Shown: piece by piece, positions 29,999 to 60,952 of the stretch
Position numbering within the stretch: position 1 is the first letter of the stretch
How the letters are laid out: every line of letters starts with the position of its first letter
NCBI GenBank assembly: GCA_964605525.1
Contig: CAZSCV010000001.1
Span: forward strand, 18,424 to 82,423
Origin: an uncultured Bdellovibrionales bacterium
Lineage (GTDB): Bacteria > Patescibacteriota > Minisyncoccia > Moranbacterales > UBA9337
DNA: 64,000 nt
Direction of reading: 5' to 3'
Program-made: the position numbers and the translations under genes
Notes under the pieces: model-generated
What the model was told of the DNA's origin: nothing
Database searches by the model: none
The model's input: only the letters and a program-made list of their open reading frames with translations

Positions 29999-30027
29999 AA
30001 AACTATTTTTACTATTTACAAATACAT

Positions 30028-34780: not shown

Positions 34781-34789
34781 TTTTTTTGT

Positions 34790-37609: not shown

Positions 37610-37650
37610 ATTTTTAAAATTTCTTTAAATAGTTTATTTTAAATATTTAT

Positions 37651-38614: not shown

Positions 38615-38666
38615 ATTTTTTTCTTGCCCGTCTTAATGCCTGCCATTTTTTCAAAATTAAACCGCT

Positions 38667-40466
38667 CTATTCCCCTGCCAATTCTCTTTTTGCATTTTCA
38701 ATTTCCAGCAACTGCCTCGGATCGGAGGTTATTATTTGATCTTCGCTATATGATGCAATCACTCGAATCGCCACATGCTTATTTCCAGCAAAAAATATCC
38801 CTTCTCCCACATTGCTCTCCAAAAGCAAAAATTTTTCCTGTTCAGTCAGATAAAACGTTTCCGCGATAGCATCGATAGATGCTGGCGACTGCTTCAGGAG
38901 AAGCTGAATAGATGAGTTGGTAATTATCGGCTTTCCATATTGGGAAGAAATAAAATCATTAATATCCTGTGTAATTGTTGTAAGGCCGGTATAATATTTT
39001 CGACATCTCTTGGCAATTCCAAAAAGAAAAGAAGCGGCATCCTCATTTTTCATCATTATCCAGGCTTCATCCACAACTACTATTCTTTTCTTAAGATTGC
39101 TTCGCATCTCATTCCAAATAAAATGAAGTACGATATACATTGCAATTGGTCGCAATTCCTCTTCAAGGTCTCTAATATTGAAAACCACCAACTGATTGTC
39201 GATTTTAACACTGGTCGGCTTATTTAAAAATCCGGCAAAAATACCTTCCGTATACTTTTCCATTCTTGTTGCTAATGATTCGGAACCCTCCATATTTTGC
39301 AAAACCGCATACAAATCAGACAATACGGGAAAATCTCCAGGCGCCAAACTATTAAAATCACTTTGCGGAGAAATATCTCTAATGGCATAGGATTCTCGAA
39401 TCCCCCTTTCAAGGATTGAATCTTCTTCCGGAGTGATATCCCGCATCATAAGATGCATAAGTCCCATTAAATTAGCCACATTACTTCTCATTGCTTCCTC
39501 GGGATCATCATCTTCACCAAGTTTCGGTATGTCAAACGGATTCAAATGCGACTGCGAATTGAGAGATATCGGAACAAACGATCCGCCCACTGTTTCGCAT
39601 AAATGTTTATACTCATTTTCCGGATCAATCACGATCACGTTTGTGTCCATCATCAATGAACGCAAAATTTCCAATTTTATGGTATAACTTTTTCCCGCTC
39701 CGGACTTAGCAAATACTGTCATATTAGCATTTTCCATTTCAAACCGGTCAAAAAGTATCAAACTGTTATTATGCCGATTTATTCCATAGAGAATTCCCTT
39801 ATTTGATGTAAGATCAGATGAAACAAAAGGGAAACTTGTTGAAAGCGGAGATGTATTCAAATTGTTGGCGACATCCAGCTCATCATTAGCCAATGGAATT
39901 GTTGATGAAATGCCCTGCTCCATACGGAAAACCGCCGGCTTGATATACACCAACTGCGCCTCTAAGATAGCCTCGATACTTTCACCTATTTTATTCACCT
40001 CTTCAACGCTTGAACCATAAACAGTCATATATAAACTGAACCTGAAAAATTTTTCAGTTCCTTCTTGCAGTTTATTCCGCAAATCCTCGATATTATTAAG
40101 CGCCGATTCCAATATCGGATCTCTGATTTTTCCCTTTCCGGCTTCAATTGAAATTTCAGACATTACCTGGGTTGCTTTTTTTCTTAGGTTTTTCAAAACA
40201 TCTGCCGTATCCATTGGATGGATGAAAATTGCCGTATCCATTGAAAAATCCGCATTGATAATTGGCGAAAACCAATTCGTGCTCAAAAATTTGGGAAAAG
40301 CAAAAACAAACAAGGTTTTCACATGCACCCCGCCTATTTCGATATGATTTGAATCAACCTTAAGCGCTGATGGTGCAATCAAATCCTTCACAGTCGCCAA
40401 TCCCTCCTGATAAAGATATTCTTCATCCGGTTCGCTGTTTTTCTTTTTTGTAAAACTTCCAAACAT
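38667..40466 (-). CDS. VirB4/TrbE-like secretion ATPase, C-terminal P-loop NTPase module
   Basis: Walker A FAKSGAGKSYTIK. Walker B RIVVVDEAWIMM. Arginine-finger region. About 600 aa VirB4/DUF87-type architecture. ATG lies 5 nt after the stop of the preceding ORF with no RBS. Confidence 0.6.
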   Translation of the reverse strand: MFGSFTKKKNSEPDEEYLYQEGLATVKDLIAPSALKVDSNHIEIGGVHVKTLFVFAFPKFLSTNWFSPIINADFSMDTAIFIHPMDTADVLKNLRKKATQVMSEISIEAGKGKIRDPILESALNNIEDLRNKLQEGTEKFFRFSLYMTVYGSSVEEVNKIGESIEAILEAQLVYIKPAVFRMEQGISSTIPLANDELDVANNLNTSPLSTSFPFVSSDLTSNKGILYGINRHNNSLILFDRFEMENANMTVFAKSGAGKSYTIKLEILRSLMMDTNVIVIDPENEYKHLCETVGGSFVPISLNSQSHLNPFDIPKLGEDDDPEEAMRSNVANLMGLMHLMMRDITPEEDSILERGIRESYAIRDISPQSDFNSLAPGDFPVLSDLYAVLQNMEGSESLATRMEKYTEGIFAGFLNKPTSVKIDNQLVVFNIRDLEEELRPIAMYIVLHFIWNEMRSNLKKRIVVVDEAWIMMKNEDAASFLFGIAKRCRKYYTGLTTITQDINDFISSQYGKPIITNSSIQLLLKQSPASIDAIAETFYLTEQEKFLLLESNVGEGIFFAGNKHVAIRVIASYSEDQIITSDPRQLLEIENAKRELAGE

Positions 40467-40471
40467 ATTTT

Positions 40472-41152
40472 TTATTCCAATTCTATTTTCTCAACATTCT
40501 TTATTATAGCATTAACCGTCAAACTTGGATTATATGAGTTATAATACAGCTCTATCAATTCTTCAGTTTCCAGTGGCGTCATCTTCAGTCCCGCTCCTCC
40601 AAGCGCAGCCTCCACTTGTTTTGCTCTTTGCCACAACTGACTCACATGGGCCTCAAAAAACTCCTTTCTTACCATCACTTGTTGTTTTGGGTTAAAAATA
40701 TCAATTAATTTTTCAAAAAATCCTTCGCTCTTGCTTTCTACTGGAGAAAAAGGAATCACTACATAAAAGAACTTAGACATAATTTGCGTCATATCAGTAA
40801 GTCTTTTGATAAAATTTCCGTATTCAGCTATTTGCATTCGAAGCAATTCATTTTTTTGCACTTTTTCTTTTTCCGCTATAATTTTCAAATAAGGATTTAT
40901 ATTAAACCTTCTCGAACTGATAACGATTTGCACCGGAAAATCCAAAGAATTTAAAAAATTTTGATACTGGCTAATAATCGCGTCCTGCTCTTCGGTCGAT
41001 TTGAGATCAAAGTTTATGGAAGAAACAAGAAAAACCATTCGCAATGACCCATTTTTCATTACAACCACACCATTTCGTATCTCTTCGATATCGACATATT
41101 TTTGCGAACTGTTTTCGCTTCTGCTTTTTTTATTTTCGTGCAATAGTTCCAT
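40472..41152 (-). CDS. VirB4-like N-terminal domain encoded as a separate ORF (split VirB4)
   Basis: RNGVVVMKNGSLRMVFLVSSINFDLKSTEEQDAIISQYQNFLNSL resembles the VirB4 N-terminal domain motif (...tkdGsl...f.l.g.d...s.ee.......l...l). Stop TAA at 40472-40474 followed by aaaat and ATG of the ATPase module. Confidence 0.4.
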   Translation of the reverse strand: MELLHENKKSRSENSSQKYVDIEEIRNGVVVMKNGSLRMVFLVSSINFDLKSTEEQDAIISQYQNFLNSLDFPVQIVISSRRFNINPYLKIIAEKEKVQKNELLRMQIAEYGNFIKRLTDMTQIMSKFFYVVIPFSPVESKSEGFFEKLIDIFNPKQQVMVRKEFFEAHVSQLWQRAKQVEAALGGAGLKMTPLETEELIELYYNSYNPSLTVNAIIKNVEKIELE

Positions 41153-41215
41153 TTTTTGTTTGCTATTTTTAATTTCTTTCCAATATTACCAACATCGCTC
41201 TCATTTGATCTTTTA

Positions 41216-41611
41216 CTATTTTCTATCAAGAATACTGGCCAATTCCCTTATTCTATCCTGGTTTATTTCCTTTTTTTCCGGCGCTGGTCCGCTTTTGGAA
41301 ACTTCTTTTGGCGCGCTCTTTTGCGCCTTCCGCCCTTCTTTCTTCCAAACATACACTTTCGGGCGGAAAAAAAACATTCCGGCGGAAAAAATAAACGTTA
41401 TCAATGATTGATTATATGGCCGATAAAAGGCCAGTGCCAAAAAAAACAATGCAAGCGGAATAGCAATTGCAAAAAAAACTCCTTGCGTCACAACATTCCA
41501 CAAAATCAGCAAAATAACTCCCAAAATAAACATCCAAAGCAGCGCCTTTCCCGTAAAAGGGCCAACAATTTTATCTTCAACATCAATAAATTGGGGTGTT
41601 CCAAATAACAT
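41216..41611 (-). CDS. VirB3/PrgI-like small membrane protein
   Basis: 131 aa. Two TM helices (ALLWMFILGVILLILWNVV, VFFAIAIPLALFFLALAF) after a short N-terminal segment FIDVEDKIVGPFTGKA. Positioned immediately upstream of the VirB4 genes as in Gram-positive-type T4SS. Confidence 0.35.
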   Translation of the reverse strand: MLFGTPQFIDVEDKIVGPFTGKALLWMFILGVILLILWNVVTQGVFFAIAIPLALFFLALAFYRPYNQSLITFIFSAGMFFFRPKVYVWKKEGRKAQKSAPKEVSKSGPAPEKKEINQDRIRELASILDRK

Positions 41612-42907
41612 CTACTTTTTCAGATCAATTACATTTGACGGGGTTTCAAAATCCCGCTTCTTATCCTTATTTGAAAACAAGCTCAAGGGCTTGATTATAT
41701 AAGGATTTTCTTCTTCATCGTCCTCTTTTTTTTGCTGTCGCTTTCTTTCATCCTCTTTTTGGGCCGCCTCTTTTCTCTCTCTTTCTATTTTTCCTCTTTC
41801 TATTTCTTCAGCTAATTTTTTTTCCGCCTCCTCCTTCTCCTTTCGCTCTTTCCTTTTTTCAATATCTTGCTGCTCAGCCTTTTTCTGTTTTTCAATTTCA
41901 AGAATTTTTTCCGCTTGTTTCTCTTTTTCTCTTTTAGCCATCTCGGCTTCTACTCCCAATTGATTATTTTTTTCTTTTTTATCCATTATTGAATATCCCC
42001 CGGAAACAACGGCTTCTTCTTGAATTTTTCGATTCAATTTGGCCAGCCCCGCCGGTTCTTCTTCCACTTTCTTGACCGGCTTTATTCTTTCCGCATTGCC
42101 GGAAGACTCTTCTTTTTTAACTGCTGGCTTTGAAACCGGAAAGAATTTGTGAAAATTGCTTTTCAGACTACCTTCTTTTATTGGCATTTTTCTGTCTTTG
42201 TATTCAGGAAAAATCACTTTTTTTTCTTCCTGATCAATATCCATCAATTCCCCGTCTTCCAGTGATTTTATAATTGCCATCATTTTTTGGCGTTCTTCGG
42301 CGCTCAAATTTTTGGCATTTTTTCCGTGGTACAAATAATCCCCTCTTTGCATCAAATCGTGCTTTCCCGCACCCATTTCATGATAATAATCATCAATCCA
42401 GTTTTTTATTGAGGGACGAATCGCATCAGAAAACCCTCTTCCTTTCAATGAAATCCCCGAGAGAGCCTGCTCGCCAATTTCCGGAATCTTCTTCATCACA
42501 TCTTCAATATTCATTTTCACGATATTTTTATTTGCTCCTAAACTTTCATCATTAATAATTGTTCGCAAAACCTCTTGCGTTATTTTTTTTGCATTTTCTT
42601 CATCTATTCCTGTTTCTTTTATTAAAACGCTTGCAAATTCATCCTTTTTCACCTCGCCAAAATAATAACTGCGCACCAAACGGGCAATTGAAGCAGTTTT
42701 TTGCAAATCAAATCCAAAACCTTGTCCAATCTTAAAAATCTTTTCCCCGGTTACATAAGACGCCAGCTTATCTTTTACGTTCTCTGGTAATTTCAAAAAT
42801 TTTTCTTGCCTCTCAATTATTTGCTCATCAGTTTCATCTTCATTTTTCAGAGTAACTGAAACCAATTGAGGAATAGTATTTCTATTTTTTATTAGCTTAT
42901 CCTCCAT
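41612..42907 (-). CDS. cytoplasmic protein with conserved N-domain and long Lys/Glu-rich coiled-coil tail
   Basis: 431 aa. C-terminal EKEKQAEKILEIEKQKKAEQQDIEKRKERKEKEEAEKKLAEEIERGKIERERKEAAQKEDERKRQQKK low-complexity coiled coil. No TM. Within the T4SS-like operon. Confidence 0.45.
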   Translation of the reverse strand: MEDKLIKNRNTIPQLVSVTLKNEDETDEQIIERQEKFLKLPENVKDKLASYVTGEKIFKIGQGFGFDLQKTASIARLVRSYYFGEVKKDEFASVLIKETGIDEENAKKITQEVLRTIINDESLGANKNIVKMNIEDVMKKIPEIGEQALSGISLKGRGFSDAIRPSIKNWIDDYYHEMGAGKHDLMQRGDYLYHGKNAKNLSAEERQKMMAIIKSLEDGELMDIDQEEKKVIFPEYKDRKMPIKEGSLKSNFHKFFPVSKPAVKKEESSGNAERIKPVKKVEEEPAGLAKLNRKIQEEAVVSGGYSIMDKKEKNNQLGVEAEMAKREKEKQAEKILEIEKQKKAEQQDIEKRKERKEKEEAEKKLAEEIERGKIERERKEAAQKEDERKRQQKKEDDEEENPYIIKPLSLFSNKDKKRDFETPSNVIDLKK

Positions 42908-42944
42908 TTTTTTTCCAAATTATTATACTTTTCTTTACTTACAC

Positions 42945-44870
42945 CTACCACATTCTATTATTTTTTCCGGCTTTCAAATTCGTTCCACTCATTCCTTTTC
43001 GTATATTTGCTTGCCCCTCATCCCCATGTTCAAGATATGCCGCCATAGCTCCTGTTGTAATATCAGCATCACTTAAAACATTTTCCAAATCCAACTTCTT
43101 CCAATCATCTGTTTTTATATTCATAAATTCTTTTTGTGCAACATTTTTTCTTTCCGAAGAAATTGCAACCAAGTTAGATGGAGCAATTCCCTTATTCTTT
43201 ATATTTTCTCCTGCTTTTTGATTAATAATCAAATCAATTCTCTTTTCCTTAACCTTCGAATCAAGAATTTCTTTCAGAGCATTATCTCCCTTAACTGCGA
43301 CAGTTGCAGTATCAAACTGCATTTGAGCTGTAATTTTATTTCCTTTTTCATCAGTATAATCCCTAAATCCTTTATTTTCAGCCAATTCCATTGCAGCTGC
43401 TTTTTTCTCAATACTACTTCCAGTTTGAAGACTTTTCCTAACTTCACTATCGGAAACTTTATCTTCCTTCCACTCTTTTCGTAAAGTAGCAACTTTCTTT
43501 CTTTCATAATCTCTTTGAGCTTCATCACCCGCACTCCATTTACCTTTTGACATCCTTGCTCCCATTTTCTCCTCCCTTAATGCTCTTGCTTCAGATCCAC
43601 CATATTTAAATTTTCCAATACCTAATTGTCTTCCTGCAATATTTCCTGTTTTCTTAAACTCATCTACAGCCTTACTTGCTCCACCTGAAATACCAGTCGC
43701 GCCCAATCCAAATGCCATCGCTTTTCCTGGTGCTTTCCTAAATTTTGTTCCTATATCTTTTGCAACCGATGTTATTTTTCCTGCGCCGTAAATATTCATT
43801 TTTGTGGCAACTAGCATTCCCGACCAAAGAATTATCATTGGAATAAAAAAGAAAGAAGCTGTTGCAAGTAAGTCGCCATTTTCAGCTGGAATTTTGTAAT
43901 TAGCCGCCAACGTATTTATACTGTCCGCGCCAATAAGCCTTGTGTTTCCAAGTTCATCCATAAGCCGCAAGGATAAAAGAAACATAAACATCATAATTGG
44001 CCCAACAAGAGCATACTTAAACAAATAATCCCACCATTCTCCCATTTTTGAAAAACTGGGAAAAATCGGACCCACAAAACCCAGTGGGGAAAAAATAATT
44101 ATCAAAGCTAGGACAATTATTCGCACTAGGAAAATTCCCGCCATAGCAATAAGGGTTATCGCCATTAGGAATGAAAAAACAATAAGAAGAAGTAATTTTA
44201 CTGTCAAATCAGAATCGGAATTAATCGAAGAGGAACCCTCTGGAATAACCAAATTAACTAACTTTGAATTATCAAGAAAAGCGGCGGAAATACTATCACT
44301 TGAATAATTATACCCTGGAAAAGCTTGTTCGATAAAAAAATACATCGTTACATTTGTTGTATCAATAATAAAACGTGAAACCGGAAAACTAAAATTCACC
44401 AAAAGCGCCATCAAGACCACCATAAGTAAAATATTTTTTTTCAAAAGATGATATTTATCAATTTGAAAAACTGTTGAAAAGGCACTAAAAAGAAGCACTA
44501 AAATGAAACTCAGATTCATAAAATCCCGCACAATCAACCAACCGGAATAAACTCCATCACTGCGAATTATTCCACTTATATTAGTCGGATTAATAGACCA
44601 ATCAAACACAAGCCCTGCCATCCAAATAAAAAAAGTAAGCAGTAGCCAAGCTCCATACAAAAGATAATTAATTCCCAATATAAATCCATTTTGCAAACTA
44701 TCCAAAGTTGAATCTACTGGGTTTAAAAAATCAAATGCGGCATTGGCTTGATTTAAGAAACCTCCACTTGCTTCTATGGAAAAATTAAAAACAAAAAAGA
44801 ATATCACAAAGACCAATAAAATTTTGGTAATATTTTTTTTATTTAAATTGTTTTTTATTTTTTGTTTCAT
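42945..44870 (-). CDS. VirB6/TrbL-like polytopic membrane protein with C-terminal hydrophilic domain
   Basis: 641 aa. N-terminal signal/TM, at least 7 further TM helices in the first 400 aa, then a charged soluble tail. Size and topology fit VirB6-type channel components. Call is by architecture only. Confidence 0.4.
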   Translation of the reverse strand: MKQKIKNNLNKKNITKILLVFVIFFFVFNFSIEASGGFLNQANAAFDFLNPVDSTLDSLQNGFILGINYLLYGAWLLLTFFIWMAGLVFDWSINPTNISGIIRSDGVYSGWLIVRDFMNLSFILVLLFSAFSTVFQIDKYHLLKKNILLMVVLMALLVNFSFPVSRFIIDTTNVTMYFFIEQAFPGYNYSSDSISAAFLDNSKLVNLVIPEGSSSINSDSDLTVKLLLLIVFSFLMAITLIAMAGIFLVRIIVLALIIIFSPLGFVGPIFPSFSKMGEWWDYLFKYALVGPIMMFMFLLSLRLMDELGNTRLIGADSINTLAANYKIPAENGDLLATASFFFIPMIILWSGMLVATKMNIYGAGKITSVAKDIGTKFRKAPGKAMAFGLGATGISGGASKAVDEFKKTGNIAGRQLGIGKFKYGGSEARALREEKMGARMSKGKWSAGDEAQRDYERKKVATLRKEWKEDKVSDSEVRKSLQTGSSIEKKAAAMELAENKGFRDYTDEKGNKITAQMQFDTATVAVKGDNALKEILDSKVKEKRIDLIINQKAGENIKNKGIAPSNLVAISSERKNVAQKEFMNIKTDDWKKLDLENVLSDADITTGAMAAYLEHGDEGQANIRKGMSGTNLKAGKNNRMW

Positions 44871-45144
44871 CTCTATTACTGTCCGTGGAATAATATTTCA
44901 CCTAAAACAAAAGTTTCTTTTTCTACTCAAATATTATATCAGATTTTTAAAAATAAACAAAATAACTAAAAAGATAAAAAGATGCTTTTTTTGAAAACTC
45001 TTTTTATTTTTTTCAATTTGAAGGAGTAGTGGTTATTATATACTGTATATATATATAATTTATTAATATATATTATTAAGAAGAGATAAATTGTTGATAA
45101 ATAAAAATAAGACAATAAATAAAAGAAAAAACAGTAGAATAATT

Positions 45145-45311
45145 TGTGGATAAGAAGTAAGAAAAAGAAGGTGTAAAATCTGGGGAAAAGGGTGGATAAA
45201 ATTAAATAAGGTGGGAAAAATAAAAATATGTAAAAATATCAACAGAAAGAGCTGGGAGATATGGACAGGGATATTAACAGAAAAATGGCGGTTTTAAACA
45301 GGTTATCCACA
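45145..45311. promoter_or_regulatory. AT-rich intergenic region with two perfect, oppositely oriented DnaA boxes and one near-perfect box, upstream of the T4SS-like operon
   Basis: TGTGGATAA at 45145-45153 (perfect). GGTGGATAA at 45191-45199. TTATCCACA at 45303-45311 (perfect). Surrounded by TATATATATATAAT-type tracts (about 45040-45080). Confidence 0.45.
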
Positions 45312-45321
45312 AATAAGTGAA

Positions 45322-45360
45322 TAAAAAATACTCACCACTTATTTGGGTGAGTATTTTTTA
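45322..45360. terminator. bidirectional rho-independent terminator downstream of the LysM-CHAP gene
   Basis: AAAAATACTCACC acttatttg GGTGAGTATTTTTT. Perfect 12-bp stem flanked by A- and T-runs. Confidence 0.6.
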
Positions 45361-45383
45361 AGGAAAATAAAGTTATTTTTTTA

Positions 45384-46631
45384 TTAATAAATATAACCTT
45401 TAATAACTCTGCTGGCGGTAGATATCGTTCGGGTACTTTTCTTTCCCCAGCCTTTATAATTCATCTCGGATACAGTAATTGTGTTTTTACTAACACTTTC
45501 AACAATAGCCACATGACCCCACCAAGATTCTGAGGAAACCATAATAGAGCCTTTTTGTGGGGTTTTTCCGGTTTTATATCCCATAATTTTAGCTTGATAT
45601 AGCCAAGTTCCAGCATTTCCACCCCAAGGAATAAAGCGTTTTTGGGCTACATACCAAGTACAATAGCCATATGGGAAGATGTGTCCAGCTCCTGCTTTTC
45701 CTTTAAGTTCCTTTAAACCTGAAGTTGTTGGTGTTCCTCCTGAGGGAGTGGCATATTCTCTGCGGTCAATAATAGAAGAGGTATTTTGATTTTGTGTGGG
45801 AATTTCTTTTTGTCCTCCGGGAATAATGATTTCTTGTTTTTCCTTTAACTCCCCATTGGCGGGTAAATCATTGAAAGAAATAATTTTACTTTTATCAGCC
45901 TCATATTCTTTAGCGATTGAGTCAATAGTATCCCCATTTTTCACAACATAAGTTAACCCGGCTACTGGAAGAATAAAGATTTGGTCGCCAGGCATAATAG
46001 AATCAATATCTTCAATGTCATTAGCCCATAAAATGGTGTTAATGGTAATATTGTTTGCTTTAGCGATAGCGCCAAGATTTTCACCTTCTTTAACTGTGTG
46101 GATTTTAACCCCCCCGTTTTCTTCTGGATCTTTTAATGTCGGACTGGAATCAGCTAAAAGCACCTGATTTTGTGAATCTTTTAATATTTCATTCTCTTCT
46201 TCTTTTGGATTTGGATTTACTGAAGTGCTAGCCATTGCGAGGGGAACTAAAACTAGGTCATTCTTTTGCATAACCTGTCCGCTAAAAAAAGCGTTTTGGG
46301 AATTGTTAACCTCGTCATTTTTCCAATAGCCAAACAAAAAACCGCTCGACTTTCCTTCGGCTGCCAAATTAGTAGAGGCTACTAAGATAGCGCTAGAAAT
46401 TACAACAACCAGCGCTGAGTAGTTTCTGAGCATATGAAGAACCGGAATGGTTCGCCTTTGCTTGATAAAGGTGGTGATGTTTTTTTGTCTGCGGTAAAGG
46501 CTTTTCTGTATTTTTTTTGTTTCGAGTTTTTTGAAAACATTGGCAATAAACAAAAGTTGTTTACTAATAGGTTTAATTCTTTCTGTTGGTTTTAATGGTA
46601 GATTCATAAAATATCGGTAAAACCGATCCAA
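45384..46631 (-). CDS. membrane-anchored cell-wall hydrolase with two LysM domains and a C-terminal CHAP domain
   Basis: TM near N-terminus (ALVVVISSAILVAST). LysM repeats TVKEGENLGAIAKANNITINTILWAN and YVVKNGDTIDSIAKEYEADKSKIISFN. CHAP motifs CTWYVAQKR...GNAGTW...GHVAIVESV with a Cys...His dyad. Confidence 0.7.
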   Translation of the reverse strand: MDRFYRYFMNLPLKPTERIKPISKQLLFIANVFKKLETKKIQKSLYRRQKNITTFIKQRRTIPVLHMLRNYSALVVVISSAILVASTNLAAEGKSSGFLFGYWKNDEVNNSQNAFFSGQVMQKNDLVLVPLAMASTSVNPNPKEEENEILKDSQNQVLLADSSPTLKDPEENGGVKIHTVKEGENLGAIAKANNITINTILWANDIEDIDSIMPGDQIFILPVAGLTYVVKNGDTIDSIAKEYEADKSKIISFNDLPANGELKEKQEIIIPGGQKEIPTQNQNTSSIIDRREYATPSGGTPTTSGLKELKGKAGAGHIFPYGYCTWYVAQKRFIPWGGNAGTWLYQAKIMGYKTGKTPQKGSIMVSSESWWGHVAIVESVSKNTITVSEMNYKGWGKKSTRTISTASRVIKGYIY

Positions 46632-46865: not shown

Positions 46866-47789
46866 ATGTTTAGTGTTCAAAAAATGAAAAAAATAGAAAA
46901 TTTGACAGTTGAATTTCTTGAGCATCTGGAGATTGAATTGGGAAGATCGCAAAAAACCATTGAAAACTATCATCACTACGTGAAAAGATTTTTACAGTGG
47001 GCGAAAATAAGCGCGCCGGATCAAATAACCCTGGATCTGGTTAGAAAATATAGATTATATCTGAATCGCTTGGAGGATGAAAAGGGTAATTTATTAAAAA
47101 AAACCACCCAAAATTACCATATCATAGCCTTGCGAAATTTTCTCAAATATCTGGCTAAAAGAGATATATCCTCGCTTTCGGCGGAAAAATTGGAAGTGGG
47201 TAGGAATCCGCAAAAAGAAGTGGAATTTCTGAATGGAGATGAAGTGGGGCGCATCTTGCAATGTGTTAATGGAGAGGATTTGAAATCTTTGCGCGACCGG
47301 TCAATTCTGGAGCTTTTGTTTTCTGCCGGGCTTCGAGTTTCAGAGCTTACTGGTATTAATAGAGATCAAATTAACCTAAAAAATCAAGAGTTTAGTGTGC
47401 GTGGAAAGGGTGATAAGGTGCGAGTGGTTTTTATTTCTGATACTGCCAAGCAAATTCTGGAAAGATATATAAGCAAAAGGGTTGATATTGACCAGGCGCT
47501 GTTTGTAAGGATTATGAAAAATCCGCAAAATAAGGAAGATTTGCGGTTGACCCCGCGCAGTATTCAGCGAATAGTCAAATATTATGCACATAAGGCGGGT
47601 ATCGTGAAAGATGTTCATCCACACACACTCAGGCACAGCTTCGCGACTGATTTACTCAGCAACGGCGCGGATATTCGCTCAGTTCAGGCAATGCTCGGAC
47701 ATTCTTCAATCACCACCACACAGATTTATACACATGTTACTAACAGACAATTAAAAGATATCCACAAGAAGTTTCATCGAAAAAAGTGA
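46866..47789 (+). CDS. xerC: tyrosine site-specific recombinase, XerC/XerD-like
   Basis: N-terminal core-binding domain (LEHLEIELGRSQKTIENYHHYVKRF). C-terminal catalytic RHSFATDLLSNGADIRSVQAMLGHSSITTTQIYTHV with the R...H-x-x-R...Y tetrad. Likely true start MKKIENL at 46884. Confidence 0.75.
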   Translation: MFSVQKMKKIENLTVEFLEHLEIELGRSQKTIENYHHYVKRFLQWAKISAPDQITLDLVRKYRLYLNRLEDEKGNLLKKTTQNYHIIALRNFLKYLAKRDISSLSAEKLEVGRNPQKEVEFLNGDEVGRILQCVNGEDLKSLRDRSILELLFSAGLRVSELTGINRDQINLKNQEFSVRGKGDKVRVVFISDTAKQILERYISKRVDIDQALFVRIMKNPQNKEDLRLTPRSIQRIVKYYAHKAGIVKDVHPHTLRHSFATDLLSNGADIRSVQAMLGHSSITTTQIYTHVTNRQLKDIHKKFHRKK

Positions 47790-50269: not shown

Positions 50270-50995
50270 ATGCTGGAAGCACTCAAAAAAATAGGAATGG
50301 AAAGCAAGCAAGCTAAAATATATTTAGCTTGTCTTGAAATTGGACAAGCTTCTATTATTGATGTTTCCAGAAAAACCGGCATTAAGCGAACAACAGTATA
50401 TGAAAACATTGAACAAATGACCCAAGAAGGCTTTATTCAAGAGACTTTTCAAGGTAAAAAAAGAAAATTTGTAGCATTGGAGCCTCGGGAGTTGAAAGAA
50501 TTATTAAGAAAAAGAGAAAATTTATTAAATCAGATAATGCCTCAGCTTCTTGCGATGGGCAATGCAAGCACGGTAAAGCCAAAAATTTGGACACAGCAGG
50601 GAAAAGAAGGAATGCTTGCAGTCTACGAAGATTCTTTGAATTATCCAGATAGCGAGGTAGTCGGCTGGGCTTCCGGTGAAGTAATTAAGCTTTTTTCCCA
50701 ACAAGAATGTGATGATTATATCCAAAAGAGAATTAAGAAGAAAATAATGCAGACATTAATTATGCCAAGCGACAAGGCTTCGAGTAATTTTGCAGAAAAT
50801 AACAAATATCAGTTGCGAAAAACAAAAATCGTTGATTTTGAGGAGTATCCATTTAAAATTGAAATAAATATGTACGCCAATCGGGTGGCTATTTTTTCCG
50901 TAAAAGACAAAATGGCAGTTATTTTGGAGTCGGAACCGATTGCTTCGGCAATGAGGATGATTTTCCGAATGTGTTGGAAAGGCTTACCGGAGTAA
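50270..50995 (+). CDS. TrmB-like winged-helix transcriptional regulator, paralog 5 of 7
   Basis: SKQAKIYLACLEIGQASIIDVSRKTGIKRTTVYENIEQMTQEGFI wHTH. Conserved C-terminal block ...MAVILESEPIASAMRMIFRMCWKGLPE. Only 29 nt upstream of uvrD on the same strand. Confidence 0.7.
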   Translation: MLEALKKIGMESKQAKIYLACLEIGQASIIDVSRKTGIKRTTVYENIEQMTQEGFIQETFQGKKRKFVALEPRELKELLRKRENLLNQIMPQLLAMGNASTVKPKIWTQQGKEGMLAVYEDSLNYPDSEVVGWASGEVIKLFSQQECDDYIQKRIKKKIMQTLIMPSDKASSNFAENNKYQLRKTKIVDFEEYPFKIEINMYANRVAIFSVKDKMAVILESEPIASAMRMIFRMCWKGLPE

Positions 50996-51024: not shown

Positions 51025-53187
51025 ATGAACAAACTACTTGAACAATTGAATGTAGCGCAGAGGGAGGCGGTGGAGGCTACTGAGGGGCCAGTTTTAGTGA
51101 TTGCTGGGGCTGGATCGGGAAAGACTCGCGTGCTTACTCACCGAGTCGCTTATTTAATAACAGAAAAAGGCGTAAAACCGCAAAATATTCTAGCTGTAAC
51201 ATTTACCAATAAAGCCGCGCAAGAAATGAAAGAGCGAATAAATAAATTGTTAGCGGATGGGTTTAATGCTTCACGTTCCACTTCGCACGTTAATGTTGGT
51301 ACTTTTCATTCAATTTGTGTAAAAATATTGCGCAGAGAGATTGATAAACTTGGTTATCAAAAGTCCTTTAATATTTTTGATGACCAGGATCAGAAAGTTT
51401 TAATGAAAAAAGTTGTCAAGGAATTGGAGATTAATACCGAACAATTCAACCCCAAAACTTTTTTAGCCGTTATTAGTAAGGCAAAAAATGAACTTCGGGA
51501 TGAGTATGCTTTTGAGGTTGGAATCGGAGGGTATTACGAAGAGATTGTGGCAAAAGTGTACAAAAAATATCAGAAGGAATTGAGGGAAATTAACGCTTTG
51601 GATTTTGACGACCTAATTCGATTGACTATTGAGCTTTTTCAGAAATTCCCCGAGATATTGGAGAAATATCAAAATCTTTTCAAATATATTTTAGTGGATG
51701 AATACCAGGATACTAATCATGCGCAATATACTTTAGTGCGATTGTTGGCTCAAAAACATCAAAATCTTTGTGTCGTTGGCGATGATTGGCAGTCAATTTA
51801 TGGCTGGAGGCAGGCAGATATCCGCAATATTTTGAGTTTCGAGAAAGATTATCCGCAAGCGAAATTAATAACATTGGAGCAAAACTATCGTTCCACGCAG
51901 AATATATTAGACGCTGCTTACGGCGTTATTTCTCAGAATGTAAACAGAAAAGACAAAAAAGTGTGGACGGACAACAAGGAAGGTCATCAAATTGTTTCAT
52001 TTGAAGCGCAAGATGAGCGCGAAGAGGCTGAATTTGTGGCACGCACAATAAGAGAAGAGCAGATGAATGAAGGAGCGCCGGGTAAATTTTCAGATTTTGC
52101 TGTGTTATACCGAACAAACGCACAATCGCGAGCCTTAGAAGAGGTTTTCTTGCGAGAAGATATTCCCTATCGAATTATCGGCGGATTAAAATTCTATCAA
52201 CGAAAGGAAATCAAAGATGTCATTGCTTATCTACATCTTATGCAGAATGGATTAGACTATGTATCCCTGGAGCGGGTTATTAATGAGCCAAAGAGAGGAA
52301 TCGGAAAAGCCACGTTAGGAAAATGGATTACTTTTTCGAAAAAAGTAGGAAAGAATCTCATCTTGACAGGATTAGGTATGGATAATGAATCCGGATTGAA
52401 TAAGGGAAAAGTCGATGAAATTAAAAAGTTCTGTGATTTTATCGTTCGGATGCAGGATTTAAGGGAAAAAATTGAGTTGGCGGATCTTATTGAAAAGGTT
52501 TTTTATGAAAGCGGTTATGAAAAAGTATTGTCGAGCATGGGAGCAGATGGCGAAATGCGATTGGAAAATGTAAGGGAGCTTCTTAGTGTGGCGGGAAAAT
52601 ATGCCGGAGTAAAAGCAAATGAATCCCTTGATTTGTTCTTGGAGGAAGTGGCACTAGCTAGTGATACTGACAATATTGAAAAAAGAGAAAATTCAGTGCA
52701 TTTAATGACGCTTCATAGTGCTAAGGGTCTTGAATTTCCTTCGGTTTTCATTGTGGGGCTTGAGGAGGGCATTCTCCCGCATTCACGAAGTATGCTTAGT
52801 GAGAGTGAAATGGAAGAAGAAAGAAGATTGATGTATGTGGGTATTACACGAGCAATGAAAAAAGTTTATCTGTTGTTTACTCAAATGAGAATGATTTTTG
52901 GCTCAACACAAGCCAATCCCCCTTCGCGATTTCTGGAAGATATTCCCCGGCATCTTATATTACCGGAAAGTACGAAGTGCGAAAAACAAAAAGAAAAACG
53001 ATTGGATAAGCACACAGCACATTCTGCATCTCAACTTTCGCGCTTTAGGGATGGACAAAGGATTATTCATGCTAACTTTGGAGAAGGAATAATTATTTCT
53101 ATTACTAATGATATAGCAACAATTGCCTTCCCTCACAAAGGAATTAAACGAATATCTCTTTCAATAGCGCCAATAAAAGAAGCGTAA
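51025..53187 (+). CDS. uvrD: ATP-dependent DNA helicase UvrD/PcrA family
   Basis: Q-motif/Walker A LNVAQREAVEATEGPVLVIAGAGSGKTRVLTHR. Motifs II (ILVDEYQDTN), III, V and VI (VGITRAMKKVYL) in order. 720 aa. Confidence 0.85.
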   Translation: MNKLLEQLNVAQREAVEATEGPVLVIAGAGSGKTRVLTHRVAYLITEKGVKPQNILAVTFTNKAAQEMKERINKLLADGFNASRSTSHVNVGTFHSICVKILRREIDKLGYQKSFNIFDDQDQKVLMKKVVKELEINTEQFNPKTFLAVISKAKNELRDEYAFEVGIGGYYEEIVAKVYKKYQKELREINALDFDDLIRLTIELFQKFPEILEKYQNLFKYILVDEYQDTNHAQYTLVRLLAQKHQNLCVVGDDWQSIYGWRQADIRNILSFEKDYPQAKLITLEQNYRSTQNILDAAYGVISQNVNRKDKKVWTDNKEGHQIVSFEAQDEREEAEFVARTIREEQMNEGAPGKFSDFAVLYRTNAQSRALEEVFLREDIPYRIIGGLKFYQRKEIKDVIAYLHLMQNGLDYVSLERVINEPKRGIGKATLGKWITFSKKVGKNLILTGLGMDNESGLNKGKVDEIKKFCDFIVRMQDLREKIELADLIEKVFYESGYEKVLSSMGADGEMRLENVRELLSVAGKYAGVKANESLDLFLEEVALASDTDNIEKRENSVHLMTLHSAKGLEFPSVFIVGLEEGILPHSRSMLSESEMEEERRLMYVGITRAMKKVYLLFTQMRMIFGSTQANPPSRFLEDIPRHLILPESTKCEKQKEKRLDKHTAHSASQLSRFRDGQRIIHANFGEGIIISITNDIATIAFPHKGIKRISLSIAPIKEA

Positions 53188-53340
53188 GTTATATTATAAA
53201 ATAAAAGTAATCTTTTGTCAAATAAAGTTAGGAAGTAAGCCATATTTTGTGGGTATTTTTTTGTCTGAATTTATTAAAAAATAAGCATAGATAGTGTGTT
53301 ATATAATTAATGACTTCTAAATCATTGATTGGGATATATA

Positions 53341-53358
53341 TTGTTCCACGTGGAACAA
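53341..53358. promoter_or_regulatory. parS-like palindrome 1 (TTGTTCCACGTGGAACAA; core TGTTCCACGTGGAACA)
   Basis: Perfect 18-bp palindrome whose 16-bp core equals the perfect-palindrome form of the ParB-binding parS consensus tGTTNCACGTGAAACa. Confidence 0.55.
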
Positions 53359-53511
53359 TTATAAGATGATTTTTATTTTTTTATTTTTTTATTTTTTTTA
53401 TATAATCTGAAAGAGTCAAATGAGTATTTTTATGAATAAATTCAAGGAATGTGGAGTTATTTCTGAAATTTAACAGTATTGTAATGATTTGATGTATATT
53501 TTTTTACACAA

Positions 53512-53529
53512 TTGTTCCATGTGGAACAA
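53512..53529. promoter_or_regulatory. parS-like palindrome 2 (variant TTGTTCCATGTGGAACAA)
   Basis: One C-to-T change in the CACGTG core. Flanks extend the dyad (ACACAATTGTTCC...GGAACAATTGTGT). Confidence 0.45.
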
Positions 53530-53706
53530 TTGTGTAAATGTATAACTTGAATAATTGAAATATTTTTTTTGTATCTATTTATTTGTTAAAAAAGAATTAT
53601 TAAAAAAGTCTAAATAATTAGTAGGAAGACAAAGAACTTTTTTGTGATTGATATATTGCGATGTTATATATTGCAAGTTTGAATTCCTAGAAAGCATATT
53701 TTGTAA

Positions 53707-53724
53707 TTGTTCCACGTGGAACAA
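53707..53724. promoter_or_regulatory. parS-like palindrome 3
   Basis: TGTAATTGTTCCACGTGGAACAATTACA. Core perfect, flanking dyad extended with compensatory changes. Confidence 0.55.
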
Positions 53725-53879
53725 TTACAAGAATACAAACTTTTTGATAAAAAATAAATCAGCATAGCTAAGGGATATTTTTTGATTGATTGCAGCAATG
53801 GGTATTTTTTTAAATTTTGATCGGTAATGGCCTGTTGAAGTTGATTTTTATCATAAGCAGAGATTTATATAGATGTATA

Positions 53880-53897
53880 ATGTTCCACGTGGAACAT
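53880..53897. promoter_or_regulatory. parS-like palindrome 4 (ATGTTCCACGTGGAACAT)
   Basis: 16-bp core perfect. Outer position changed symmetrically (A...T). Confidence 0.55.
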
Positions 53898-54050
53898 TGA
53901 AGTTGTTTGGTATATTTTTTTAGTAAAAAACTTTAATAATATCCAAAAAAGTGCTGTTTTTTAATTAGTTGCGATAAATAAGATATTTTTCTATTCTTTT
54001 AATAGGGCTGATTTTAAAATAAAAAAGTAATGATTTATATGAAAGTATAA

Positions 54051-54068
54051 TTGTTCCACGTGGAACAA
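54051..54068. promoter_or_regulatory. parS-like palindrome 5
   Basis: TATAATTGTTCCACGTGGAACAATTATA, a perfect 28-bp extended dyad. Confidence 0.55.
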
Positions 54069-54184
54069 TTATACTAGGCGGATTATTTCTCGTTTAGTGT
54101 TTGTTGTATTTATTTTAATAATTAGTGATACATCGGAAGGTTTGATAGATTTTTTTTGCGTAGTATGGGTTTGTTTTTATTATA

Positions 54185-54202
54185 TTGTTCCACGTGGAAC
54201 AA
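54185..54202. promoter_or_regulatory. parS-like palindrome 6
   Basis: TATATTGTTCCACGTGGAACAATTAGG. Core perfect. Confidence 0.55.
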
Positions 54203-54497
54203 TTAGGGTTAATTTTATGTTTGAATGTATGCAAATGTGGATAACTTATAAGAGATACTTAAAACAAAGGGTTTTTCTTATTAAAAGCTGTGGATAATGT
54301 GTGAATTAAAATAGATACTAGCCTATTTTAGTTGACAAAAAAGTAAATATATTGCATAGTATAAATATATAATAGTTTCAAATTATTTTTTTTAAAAAGT
54401 GTTAAGCGGGATGAATTCAATGATTTAGAGCCCACTTCTTTTGTGTTTTTGTTGACGGTTTGTTTTATTTCGTTTATGATTGGCTTGTTGAAAATAA

Positions 54498-54570
54498 GGG
54501 CCATTAGCTCAATTGGTAGAGCGCTTCCATGGCATGGAAGAGGCAGCCGGTTCGAATCCGGCATGGTCCA
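54498..54570 (+). tRNA. tRNA-Ala (anticodon GGC)
   Basis: Hand-folded cloverleaf GGGCCAT/ATGGTCC acceptor with G3:U70 Ala identity pair. D-arm GCTC/GAGC. Anticodon stem CTTCC/GGAAG, loop ATGGCAT. T-arm GCCGG TTCGAAT CCGGC. Discriminator A. No encoded CCA. Confidence 0.85.
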
Positions 54571-54679
54571 CTACGCAAAATTTATTATTAACAATAAATT
54601 TTTGTGTAGTGGCCACGTTTGTGGTTTTTTGTTTATTTAAAACTGCGATTGTGATATTGTAGTAGTGTATAAACTTATT

Positions 54680-54754
54680 GTCCTTGTAGTTCAATGGATA
54701 GAACGAGTCCCTCCTAAGGACTAAATGCAGGTTCGATTCCTGCCAAGGACACCA
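54680..54754 (+). tRNA. tRNA-Arg (anticodon CCT)
   Basis: Acceptor GTCCTTG/CAAGGAC. Anticodon stem AGTCC/GGACT, loop CTCCTAA. T-arm GCAGG TTCGATT CCTGC. Discriminator A plus encoded CCA. Confidence 0.85.
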
Positions 54755-56494: not shown

Positions 56495-57625
56495 ATGAAT
56501 AGATTTCAACAGCAACAAATCATTCAAGACTTAGCCAAGAAAATGGTTTTCATTACCGGTCCGAGACAAGTCGGGAAAACCTGGCTGGCTAAAGAGATTA
56601 GCAAGGGTTTCAAATCCCCCCTGTATCTTAATTATGACAACTTTGACCAGCGCCAAATCATCCAAAAAGAACAATGGCCGCAAGCAACCGATCTTCTGAT
56701 TTTTGATGAAATCCATAAAATGCCGGATTGGAAGAATTATCTGAAGGGAGTTTATGATACAAAAAATGAGACCACGAAAATTTTGGTGACTGGCAGTGCC
56801 AGATTGGAAACTTTTCGTCAATCCGGAGACTCTTTGGCTGGCCGATTTTTTGCGCACAAACTATTGCCATTTTCTTTGGCTGAATTGCGCAAGATAGATT
56901 CCACAAAAGAATCTTTGATTGATTCATTGATCCAGAGGGGTGGTTTCCCAGAACCATTTTTAGCCGCAACTGACATTGAAGCGGAAAGATGGCGCAATCA
57001 GTATATCGATGGCTTGGTTCGACATGATATTTTGGATTTTGAAAATATTCATGATTTCAAATCAGTCCAACTCGTTTTTGAATTATTGCGCCGAAGGACT
57101 GGTTCGCCAATCTCGCTAAATTCAATTGCTATCGATGTCGGAATTTCACCTGTAACGGTTAATAAATATCTGCAAATATTTGAAGCGCTCTATATTGTTT
57201 TTCGCGTCACACCCTATTCAAAAAATATCGCCCGCTCAATTTTAAAAGAATCAAAAGTATATTTTTTTGATAATGGATTAGTAATTGGGGACGATGGCGC
57301 TAAAATTGAAAATTTTGTCGCTATCTCTTTGTTAAAAAACATCTCCGCCAAAAATGATCTATTGGGGGAGCGCGGCGAACTTAAATATGTGCGCACCAAG
57401 GATGGCAAAGAAGTTGATTTTGCAATAATCAATGGAGAAAATGAAATCGAGGAACTTATCGAAGTAAAAAAACAGGATAATAATCTAAGTAAAACTTTGA
57501 AATATTTTGTAGAAAAATATAGCCTTAAAGGAATTCAACTGGTTAAAGAATTGAAAAATGAAAAACAAATCGGCAATATCCGAATTCTGAAAATGGAGAA
57601 CTATTTAAAAAATTTGTTTCTATAA
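56495..57625 (+). CDS. AAA+ ATPase (AAA_14 + DUF4143-type, family recalled), copy 2
   Basis: Walker A ITGPRQVGKTWLAKE. Walker B LLIFDEIH. Same architecture as copy 1 (28814-29998). Promoter TTGACT-N17-TAAAAT upstream. Confidence 0.65.
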   Translation: MNRFQQQQIIQDLAKKMVFITGPRQVGKTWLAKEISKGFKSPLYLNYDNFDQRQIIQKEQWPQATDLLIFDEIHKMPDWKNYLKGVYDTKNETTKILVTGSARLETFRQSGDSLAGRFFAHKLLPFSLAELRKIDSTKESLIDSLIQRGGFPEPFLAATDIEAERWRNQYIDGLVRHDILDFENIHDFKSVQLVFELLRRRTGSPISLNSIAIDVGISPVTVNKYLQIFEALYIVFRVTPYSKNIARSILKESKVYFFDNGLVIGDDGAKIENFVAISLLKNISAKNDLLGERGELKYVRTKDGKEVDFAIINGENEIEELIEVKKQDNNLSKTLKYFVEKYSLKGIQLVKELKNEKQIGNIRILKMENYLKNLFL

Positions 57626-58359: not shown

Positions 58360-59130
58360 TTGATTATGATAAAGAGTCTTTTAGAACAACTGAATTTCTC
58401 GGAAAAAGAGTCCGCTATTTATCTAGCGCTTTTGGAAATGGGTTCAACGAAACCCAGTATTTTAGCCAAAAAAACTGGCCTGAATCGCACCACCGTCTAT
58501 GATATTTGCGAGCTTTTGATGCAAAAAGGTTTGATTTCGAAATATAAAAAAGGCGCCGGCACATTCTTTAATGCGCTGGATCCCAAACATTTACTGACAT
58601 ATCTTGACCGAGAAAGAGAAGAAAAGGCCAAAGAGATTGAAAAACAGAAGGGCAAGGTTTCTGAACTTCTGCCCCAGCTTTTGTCGATGCAAAACATTTA
58701 TGGCGCCAGTAAGCCGAAAGTGCAGTTTTTTGAAGGAGAAAAGGGGATGCGCGAGGCTTATGAAGACACGCTTACCAGCAAGGAAATTATCCTAGCTTAT
58801 GCCAATCCGCAGACGATGCATGAGGGTCTGCCCAATTTCTTTCCGGAATATTACAAGCGCCGGGCGGAAAAAAGAATCTTTATTAAAGCCATCATTCCCA
58901 GAAACAAGATGTCTTTGGAAAGAATGGCGCACAATCAGGAAGAAATGCGCGATACCCGCTTTTTGCCCGAAGAAAAAATGACTTTTTCGCCAGAAGTGAA
59001 TATCTATAACAACAAAATGCTCATCGCCTCATGGAAAGAAAAAATAGCTATCATTATCGAATCGAAAGAGTTGGTCGATTTGCAAAAAATGACCTTCGAT
59101 TTATTGTGGGAAAGTTTGCCGAGAAATTAA
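58360..59130 (+). CDS. TrmB-like winged-helix transcriptional regulator, paralog 6 of 7
   Basis: SEKESAIYLALLEMGSTKPSILAKKTGLNRTTVYDICELLMQKGLI wHTH. C-terminal block ...KIAIIIESKELVDLQKMTFDLLWESLPRN. Promoter AAAATTGACAAATTATGG...TATACT. Confidence 0.7.
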   Translation: MIMIKSLLEQLNFSEKESAIYLALLEMGSTKPSILAKKTGLNRTTVYDICELLMQKGLISKYKKGAGTFFNALDPKHLLTYLDREREEKAKEIEKQKGKVSELLPQLLSMQNIYGASKPKVQFFEGEKGMREAYEDTLTSKEIILAYANPQTMHEGLPNFFPEYYKRRAEKRIFIKAIIPRNKMSLERMAHNQEEMRDTRFLPEEKMTFSPEVNIYNNKMLIASWKEKIAIIIESKELVDLQKMTFDLLWESLPRN

Positions 59131-59895: not shown

Positions 59896-60176
59896 ACTAG
59901 TCTCCTTTTTAAAGATTGAGTTTGGAATTGAGCTAAAGCGTGACAAGGTTTTGAATGAACTTTTGTTAAGACTCGATTCTTTTTCGACTTCTTGTCTCAA
60001 CAAACCAGTATGTATCCAAAAGAAAATATTGTCAATAATTGGCGTCAAATTATTTAAGTTAGATTTTTAGCAAAAGAGAAAAATAGCTTTAAAATGAAGT
60101 AATATTGACAAAATATGGTAGTACGATATGATTATTATGTTGACGGAAAGTGCCGACAACTATTTTATTTTACTGG

Positions 60177-60196
60177 ATTCCCGTTTTCGCGGGAAT
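60177..60196 (+). promoter_or_regulatory. GC-rich 5-prime-leader hairpin of TrmB paralog 7 (ATTCCCGttttcgCGGGAAT, followed by GACA)
   Basis: 6-bp stem 9 nt upstream of ATG 60206. Preceded by promoter TTGACA-N16-TATGAT (about 60100-60127). Homologous to the paralog 1 leader element. Confidence 0.45.
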
Positions 60197-60205
60197 GACA
60201 TAGAA

Positions 60206-60952
60206 ATGCAAATCAAAGAATTTTTACAGAAGTTTGATATTGATGGGAAAAAAGCGGATGTTTATCTGGCAGTTTTGGAATTGGGGAGTGGAACTGCCAA
60301 TGAGATTGCTAAAAAGTCTGAAATTAAAAGAACGACTTGCTATGATGTCTTGCAAGATTTGGAAAAACCCGGTTTGGTTTATGAAACCAGCAAAGGCAAA
60401 AAAAGGCTTTTTGTGGCGGAGGATCCGGAAAAATTGCGCAAAAAAATAAGCGAAAAGGAAAAACTTCTTGATGAAATGCTCCCTGAGTTGCGATCTTTCT
60501 ACAATATCAAAGGGACAAAACCGAAAATCAGGTTTTATGAGGGCAAAGAGGGATTGCGCGAGGTATATGCGGATACCCTGAATTATTCCGGAGAAATGCT
60601 GGTATTTGCGTCGGAAGACGTAGCGAAAATTTTGGGGATGAATTGGACGAACGATTATTTGGCAAAAAGAGTGAAAAAAGAATTGCGGGTACGAGCGATT
60701 ATGCCAAAGACAAAAATTATTGAACAAGATTTTGTTTCGAAAGACCAAAAACAACTTCGCGCCTCCAAGTTGGTTGATGCGAAAAAATATCCTTTTTCTA
60801 TCGAAATCAACATTTATGGTCATCAAAAAGTAGCACTAATGTCTTCGCGAGAAGAAATGGGAATTATTATTGAAGGTGCGGAGATTTACAACACTCTGAA
60901 GCTTATTTTTGAATTATTGTGGGATAATCTGCCAGAGATTGAAATAAGCTAA
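60206..60952 (+). CDS. TrmB-like winged-helix transcriptional regulator, paralog 7 of 7
   Basis: GKKADVYLAVLELGSGTANEIAKKSEIKRTTCYDVLQDLEKPGLV wHTH. C-terminal block ...MGIIIEGAEIYNTLKLIFELLWDNLPE. 39 nt upstream of recQ. Start placed at MQIKEF (after the leader hairpin). Confidence 0.7.
   Translation: MQIKEFLQKFDIDGKKADVYLAVLELGSGTANEIAKKSEIKRTTCYDVLQDLEKPGLVYETSKGKKRLFVAEDPEKLRKKISEKEKLLDEMLPELRSFYNIKGTKPKIRFYEGKEGLREVYADTLNYSGEMLVFASEDVAKILGMNWTNDYLAKRVKKELRVRAIMPKTKIIEQDFVSKDQKQLRASKLVDAKKYPFSIEINIYGHQKVALMSSREEMGIIIEGAEIYNTLKLIFELLWDNLPEIEIS

Follow-up and report, generated by a model that had tools for sequence, protein, structure and literature searches.

Why should a bacterial chromosome carry six copies of one palindrome within less than a kilobase of non-coding DNA? 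The copies in question lie between uvrD and a tRNA-Ala gene in a stretch of 64,000 nucleotides (referred to throughout as the window; contig CAZSCV010000001.1 of assembly GCA_964605525.1, positions 18,424 to 82,423), which is labelled as the DNA of an uncultured Bdellovibrionales bacterium, and their sequence is that of parS, the site recognized by the ParB protein. As far as sequence comparison can tell, the six palindromes are very probably the chromosomal parS centromere of a Moranbacteria genome (Patescibacteria, candidate phyla radiation, CPR), a reading that draws on their identity to validated parS sites, their adjacency to the predicted origin, their restriction, within the 73 kb examined, to a single conserved locus, and purifying selection at the level of the DNA.

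The array and its place on the chromosome

A search for TGTTCCACGTGGAACA throughout the window, with up to two mismatches allowed, recovered only the copies that begin at 53342, 53513, 53708, 53881, 54052, and 54186, which together occupy 0.86 kb (53342-54201), in comparison with an expectation of zero matches in dinucleotide-preserving shuffles of the window. No further site with two or fewer mismatches is found in the 73 kb formed by the window and the adjacent 9 kb (L121). Measured against the 16-bp palindrome that characterizes parS, TGTTNCACGTGNAACA, five of the copies are exact, and the other, at 53513, reads TGTTCCATGTGGAACA, with a T in place of the central C at 53520, which leaves 95 of the 96 core bases intact. 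An earlier note on this DNA had described six perfect palindromes, and was right about the motif and its coordinates, but not about this copy; its spacing of 134-195 bp was confirmed, the successive starts being 171, 195, 173, 171, and 134 bp apart.

The palindromes, which are unstranded, vary in length. Sites 1 (53340-53359), 4 (53879-53898), and 6 (54184-54203) are 20 bp long, and are centered on perfect 16-mers at 53342-53357, 53881-53896, and 54186-54201, respectively, with an AATG...CATT variant of the flanks at site 4. Sites 3 (53701-53730) and 5 (54044-54075) are perfect palindromes of 30 bp and 32 bp around perfect 16-mers (53708-53723 and 54052-54067), and site 2 (53503-53538) extends over 36 bp and is perfect except for the C>T change within its 16-mer (53513-53528).

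The DNA that separates the sites is not itself repeated. Tandem Repeats Finder reported no array at the cluster, and all the pairwise local alignments of the inter-site spacers scored at the level of shuffled sequence (z from -1.4 to 2.3), which identifies the locus as a cluster of sites, rather than a tandem duplication, and rules out a duplicated unit of approximately 171 bp. The whole cluster is contained in an AT-rich region (53188-54497, unstranded, GC content 0.22-0.27), which is bounded by uvrD (51025-53187) on the left and by tRNA-Ala(GGC), from 54498, on the right. The non-coding setting ascribed to it in the earlier note is borne out, the longest open reading frame (ORF) having 66 amino acids, if one antisense to the tRNA is set aside, and no Rfam family was matched within the region. 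A contig assembled independently from a different sample (L122) matches the window with 100% identity along 4249 bp, in which the variant copy also appears, and the array is thus not an assembly artefact.

The 16-mer TGTTCCACGTGGAACA is listed as the parS of Pseudomonas aeruginosa and P. putida (PMC7022226 Table 1), and was used as the parS of Bdellovibrio bacteriovorus in ParB binding and CTPase assays (bioRxiv 10.1101/2023.06.27.546657), while the 22 parS sites of Myxococcus xanthus have the near-identical consensus TGTTCCACGTGGAACG (PMC7022226 Table 1). Clusters of the motif were sought in one genome per species, as two perfect 16-mers 150-180 bp apart, and were found at no fewer than 119 loci, each in a different species, spanning the Planctomycetota, Acidobacteriota, Bacteroidota, Bacillota, Bdellovibrionota, Myxococcota, Patescibacteria, and others, with 2-26 sites in each cluster. 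Among the at least 119 loci listed, parB is encoded within 8 kb at 44, and parA and/or parB at 51, as judged by tblastn with the Spo0J and Soj proteins of Bacillus subtilis (the Spo0J probe being 100% identical to the B. subtilis database protein, in a protein search that returned only Bacillus proteins, close relatives of the query). Tight arrays of the palindrome are, then, a widespread form of chromosomal centromere, and should not be taken as plasmid-like. The premise that chromosomal parS sites are normally single and dispersed, from which the earlier note had started, is contradicted by these clusters, as it is by the 22 sites of Myxococcus (PMC7022226). One contig (L103) is labelled Methanothrix and carries bacterial parAB together with parS, a label that probably reflects contamination of the bin.

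The gene content of the window is chromosomal and CPR-like, and includes dnaA (18238-19644), dnaN, rnpA, yidC, and jag, with gyrA just past the window edge. The cumulative GC skew declines as far as approximately 44.9 kb and climbs beyond it. Genes on the plus strand to the left of approximately 45 kb have negative skew, while uvrD, to the right, has a skew of +0.15 to +0.39, which indicates that the switch is due to replication, and not to transcription. The minimum coincides with an unstranded intergenic region of approximately 514 bp (44871-45383; 21% GC), which contains two perfect and two one-mismatch DnaA boxes, and is the probable oriC. The array lies approximately 8 kb to the right of this skew minimum and cluster of DnaA boxes, which is an origin-proximal location of the kind expected of a chromosomal parS, and dnaA lies 25 kb away on the other side, with dnaN, at 17-19.6 kb. 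The distance of approximately 34 kb between the array and dnaA emphasized by the earlier note is correct (33.7 kb as measured), but the relevant distance is that of approximately 8 kb to the predicted oriC. An array that had looked odd would thus be the expected chromosomal centromere, and it helps to place the origin of an uncultivated CPR genome at approximately 25 kb from dnaA. The predicted oriC is flanked by a gene cluster similar to a type IV secretion system (T4SS), and by a LysM-CHAP gene.

The locus in related genomes

The earlier note had suggested that the orthologous region be compared in relatives, and this comparison shows the parS cluster to be maintained beside the same tRNA gene. 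In the window and in 16 other places of the Patescibacteria type, a cluster immediately precedes tRNA-Ala(GGC), after which tRNA-Arg(CCT) is usually found, and in many cases the gene of the CCA-adding enzyme (the places being L102, L087, L036, L038, L048, L056, L085, L093, L016, L060, L084, L124/L125, L126, L040, L047, and L110). In the window, the two tRNAs occupy 54498-54754 on the plus strand, and are the synteny anchor of the parS locus across the Moranbacteria and Patescibacteria. The CCA-adding enzyme encoded downstream of the array shares 70% identity with its counterparts in the closest relatives, L102, a Moraniibacteriota metagenome-assembled genome (MAG), and L087 (Parcubacteria group bacterium GW2011_GWD2_38_11).

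In 11 relatives, the whole array, which comprises 5-17 perfect sites, is found inside a single ORF of 436-729 codons, measured from stop to stop, although the shortest, of 436 codons, is truncated where its locus ends. The array ORF of L087 (4630-6411, minus strand) matches the Pfam family Wzy_C, of the O-antigen ligase type, and arrays embedded in this way also occur in L016, L036, L037, L048, L056, L085, L093, L105, L110, L040, and L124-L126. Within the 20-kb locus of each relative, every parS site is inside the Wzy_C-type gene, in one stretch of 1.2-1.8 kb. None of the six frames of the palindrome contains a stop codon, and within one ORF the palindrome is read in all three frames, as the peptides FHVE, CSTWN, or VPRGT. 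In a MAFFT alignment of the proteins, which are 28-43% identical, these peptides fall at homologous positions between hydrophobic segments, and, across 120 members of the family, all 675 such peptides lie outside transmembrane-like windows.

The codons used for these peptides point to the level at which selection operates. In the 11 orthologous ORFs, exact parS DNA encodes 115 of the 116 FHVE, CSTWN, and VPRGT peptides, in comparison with approximately 1%, 0.3%, and 0.3% expected from the codon usage of the same ORFs, and the sole exception has the other canonical half-site, TTTCAC. Selection thus acts on the DNA, the parS sequence is conserved by it among the relatives, and the Moranbacteria locus represents a clear natural example in which selection at the DNA level overrides the choice of codons within a gene. 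A protein search recovered 715 family members, all the named ones being Moranbacteria, Parcubacteria, or Patescibacteria. The parS peptides are present in 113 of the best 120 of these 715 members, with a median of six in each, a proportion that is an upper estimate, given that a word-based search favors proteins that share these peptides.

Four MAGs labelled Bdellovibrionales (L040, L047, L105, and L110) carry the Wzy_C/parS gene of the Moranbacteria type. The tRNA-Ala(GGC) synteny is common to L040, L047, and L110, whereas L105 has no such tRNA within 8 kb. The Bdellovibrionales labels of these MAGs are probably wrong.

The window itself has no such gene around its array. L102 and L087 have matching flanks, with the gene of a TSP3-repeat protein at one edge of the locus, and those of tRNA-Ala, tRNA-Arg, and the CCA enzyme at the opposite edge, but the interval between them holds, in L102, a non-coding array of seven perfect sites, in place of the Wzy_C gene of L087. 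The window shares the tRNA side with both, and has uvrD on the opposite side. Once the parS sites had been masked, no similarity to the Wzy_C gene was left in either the window or L102; the matches of the unmasked Wzy_C profile in the window are due to the parS peptides, on both strands, and were rejected as a gene remnant. Given the synteny, which points to ancestral embedding followed by decay, the simplest history would be that this lineage lost the host Wzy_C-type gene by decay, but retained the parS sites. That all but one of the 96 core bases persist among spacers devoid of residual similarity speaks for continuing selection on the sites in the window. The locus would then represent a centromere that has outlived its host gene, and might serve to examine the number of parS sites that a small genome requires. 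The cluster itself is an ordinary kind of element, and the greater novelty lies in the gene-embedded form that the locus takes across the clade, together with its probable decay to a bare array in this lineage. A stretch beyond the last site of the window (54306-54331, TTAAAATAGATACTAGCCTATTTTAG) aligns with the seventh parS of L102, TTAAAATGTTCCACGTGGAACATTTTAA, with the outer arms retained and the core replaced, and may be either a lost parS site or a chance resemblance in AT-rich DNA.

Extended symmetry, partition, and competing explanations

Two symmetrical flanking bases are present in all six copies, and the first flank positions of 559 perfect sites share a consensus across phyla (T or A, then T, T, T), which accounts for the 20-bp palindromes. 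At three of the six window sites, the symmetry extends 7, 8, and 10 bp beyond the core, so that the palindromes reach 30, 32, and 36 bp, each with arms of a different sequence. As a control, left flanks were matched anew with right flanks taken from other sites of the same locus. Extensions of at least 5 bp were observed at 10-30% of the sites, in comparison with 3-5% in the control, and extensions of at least 7 bp at 1.6-15%, in comparison with 0.2-0.9%. Given a control frequency near 0.009, three long extensions among six sites would be expected by chance with a probability of approximately 1e-5. The three long palindromes are predicted to form DNA hairpins of -12 to -15 kcal/mol, with the C>T change of site 2 in the predicted loop.

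The source of this long symmetry may be hairpin-templated (quasi-palindrome) mutation, selection for cruciforms, or wider contacts with ParB. The dyad symmetry that the earlier note had seen in the flanks of every copy is therefore confirmed for two bases in all six, but only three extend further, and, while the compensatory changes in the flanks of those three are real, they need not mean selection, as the note had supposed. The TATA(A/T)T hexamer that it had placed before each copy is not above chance, with 13 promoter-like matches in comparison with 11.8 expected; the hexamers result from the base composition of the region (22-27% GC), and promoters ahead of each site were rejected.

Together, these observations incline us, by a modest degree, to a fuller account of the locus. 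The Moranbacteria would keep a dedicated centromere locus beside tRNA-Ala(GGC), ancestrally in the loop-coding parts of a Wzy_C-type gene, with 5-17 perfect parS sites, in three frames, under DNA-level selection. In the present lineage, the host gene would have dissolved, leaving the bare array as a centromere relic, and the palindromes of 30-36 bp would record a hairpin-driven process, whether template-switch extension or cruciform selection, that affects clustered parS sites in many phyla.

In the established ParABS pathway, CTP-bound ParB dimers recognize every 16-bp site and form closed clamps, which slide onto the adjacent DNA, and the same would be expected here. Six loading sites in 0.86 kb would create one dense partition complex approximately 8 kb to the right of oriC, and the action of ParA and/or SMC on this complex could then separate the newly replicated origins. 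The central proposal of the earlier note, that of a ParB-type parS in a centromere-like, origin-proximal cluster, is upheld by the validated 16-mer, the parAB-adjacent clusters of many phyla, and the DNA-level selection, although its side claims of perfect copies, of singly dispersed sites as the norm, and of the TATAAT element were not.

A number of observations weigh against this interpretation. As the earlier note had stated, the window contains neither parA nor parB, on the evidence of Pfam searches of all plausible ORFs of at least 100 amino acids and of tblastn with Spo0J and Soj. Neither gene was recovered from the 9 kb that adjoin the window on one side, nor from DNA up to 10 kb from the arrays of those Patescibacteria relatives that were examined, among them two with long contigs, and no literature on ParB or parS in the CPR/Moranbacteria clade was found. 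Site 2 has a mismatch in its center. To our knowledge, a palindrome of 30-36 bp exceeds the requirements of any known ParB footprint, and something besides recognition by ParB, for example the formation of hairpins, may also act on the long palindromes.

The first of the alternatives to a working centromere, and an improbable one, is that the sites are neutral leftovers of the ancestral gene-embedded array, unbound by any protein, and either undecayed as yet or kept palindromic by hairpin-templated repair. The host gene is missing in both the window and L102, one site is already mismatched, and the window has six sites, where relatives have up to 17 perfect ones. Neutral decay would not, however, leave the core bases almost wholly intact (95 of 96) amid spacers saturated with change, and L102 has independently retained its seven perfect sites in non-coding DNA.

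It is less probable still that the array is a set of operators for another palindrome-binding protein, such as a TrmB-like winged-helix regulator, unrelated to segregation. No ParB is encoded near any Patescibacteria array examined, and the window has seven genes of the TrmB family, one of which (50270-50995) is directly upstream of uvrD. Against this, the sequence is base-for-base the universal parS, which is found beside parAB in other phyla, and it is restricted here, in the 73 kb examined, to one origin-proximal locus that is not ahead of regulated genes, and is inside coding sequence in the relatives.

The hairpins might instead be the functional unit, in DNA or RNA, as terminators or insulators that separate uvrD from the tRNA operon, or as mobile palindromes of the REP or MITE type, an explanation to which we assign very little weight. 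It would account for the three long palindromes, with their predicted folding energies, for the excess of extended symmetry at clustered parS sites in all phyla, and for the two palindromes flagged by a terminator scan. The invariant part is, however, the 16-bp ParB site, and not the stem length or the outer arms, and three sites have palindromes of only 20 bp. The T-runs are either missing or inconsistent in strand, and the two flagged sites, of six, are on opposite strands, for which reason intrinsic terminators were rejected. In addition, the copies are not dispersed within the 73 kb examined, and correspond to no Rfam family. The unit size does not fit a CRISPR or TIGR guide array, which was also rejected, given that the spacers are irregular, at 114-175 bp (the TIGR units being of 36 nt), and that Pfam identified no Cas gene, and no Tas-like gene with a Nop domain, in the window.

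There is as little to commend the possibility that the AT-rich 1.3 kb, at 22-27% GC and with two perfect DnaA boxes (54236 and 54289) conserved at near-equal spacing in L102, is an oriC or DnaA-titrating site to which parS is accessory, given that the GC skew changes sign at approximately 45 kb, that uvrD, to the left of the array, already has the skew of the right replichore (+0.15 to +0.39), on which grounds an oriC at the array was rejected, and that the pair of boxes is absent from the gene-embedded arrays.

Comparison with known systems is consistent with a chromosomal parS centromere. As in the Myxococcus xanthus cluster, numerous near-identical sites are concentrated in a few kb close to the origin (a myxobacterial Corallococcus locus, L051, has 17 sites in 2.8 kb), although in the window the sites are fewer, the palindromes longer, and the surrounding DNA AT-rich and non-coding, and, unlike the clusters that adjoin parAB in many other phyla, the array has no parAB within tens of kb. 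It shares its 16-mer with parS1-4 of P. aeruginosa and P. putida, and with the parS of Bdellovibrio, where the sequence binds ParB and supports segregation, but these bacteria have two to four sites distributed over kilobases, some of them in promoters or genes. The relatives of the window resemble B. subtilis in carrying parS within coding sequence, as in spo0J, except that B. subtilis has single sites in different genes, whereas the Moranbacteria have 5-17 perfect sites in one Wzy_C-type gene, and the array of the window is non-coding.

The likeness to a plasmid-style centromere, which the earlier note had put forward, is confined to the presence of several ParB-type sites in a short non-coding stretch, as in the sopC of the F plasmid, or the iteron-like parC and parS. 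Plasmid centromeres consist of head-to-tail units at fixed spacing, whereas only the palindrome is repeated in the window, at irregular intervals of 134-195 bp, and the replicon is chromosomal, with dnaA, dnaN, and yidC, and gyrA just beyond. With no array detected by Tandem Repeats Finder, and spacers at chance similarity, a tandem-repeat centromere of the sopC type was rejected. The Noc-binding sites (NBS) of the Bacillota are also palindromes, and are bound by a ParB paralogue, but they are dispersed and excluded from the terminus, rather than clustered near the origin. The NBS sequence, ATTTCCCGGGAAAT, was rejected as a match, the motif of the window having a CACGTG center with TGTT and AACA ends.

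Neighboring features and assembly of the locus

Between the last parS site and the tRNA-Ala promoter, a pair of perfect DnaA boxes, TTATCCACA, is found on the minus strand (54236-54297), with a distance of 53 bp between their starts at 54236 and 54289. An equivalent pair, at an interval of 51 bp, is present in the closest relative, L102 (3475-3534), while the gene-embedded arrays of the relatives have none. The pair was rejected as a general feature of the locus, occurring only in the window, in L102, and, in altered form, in L036.

The locus is a recurrent point of breakage in assemblies. Among the short-read contigs of the same sample, L001 ends 57 bp past the first parS site and L123 begins inside the array, and a run of N lies inside the array of L102. 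Perfect palindromes and repeats fragment short-read assemblies at the parS locus, which is of practical use for the closing of CPR genomes.

On the uvrD side of the array, a perfect sigma-70 consensus (TTGACA, a 17-bp spacer, and TATAAT) is found at 53193-53221 on the minus strand, right after the uvrD stop codon and facing back into the gene. Within uvrD, a sub-threshold Rfam match (52786-52884, plus strand) to n00280, a Clostridioides difficile small RNA located within a helicase gene, scored 41 bits against a gathering score of 65, and probably reflects conserved helicase coding sequence.

Elsewhere in the window, seven paralogues of approximately 250 amino acids have an N-terminal TrmB winged helix (4386-5135, 24716-25453, 25480-26250, 27833-28612, 50270-50995, 58360-59130, and 60128-60952), and two genes are of the AAA_14/DUF4143 type (28814-30055 and 56495-57625). 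A cluster on the minus strand (33638-46631) encodes a VirB4/TraG-like ATPase (38667-40466), several large proteins with no Pfam matches, and a LysM-CHAP hydrolase (45384-46631), and is followed by the gene of a Xer-type recombinase (46866-47789). This cluster is similar to a chromosomal type IV secretion system reported in the Patescibacteria (bioRxiv 10.1101/2025.01.22.634366).

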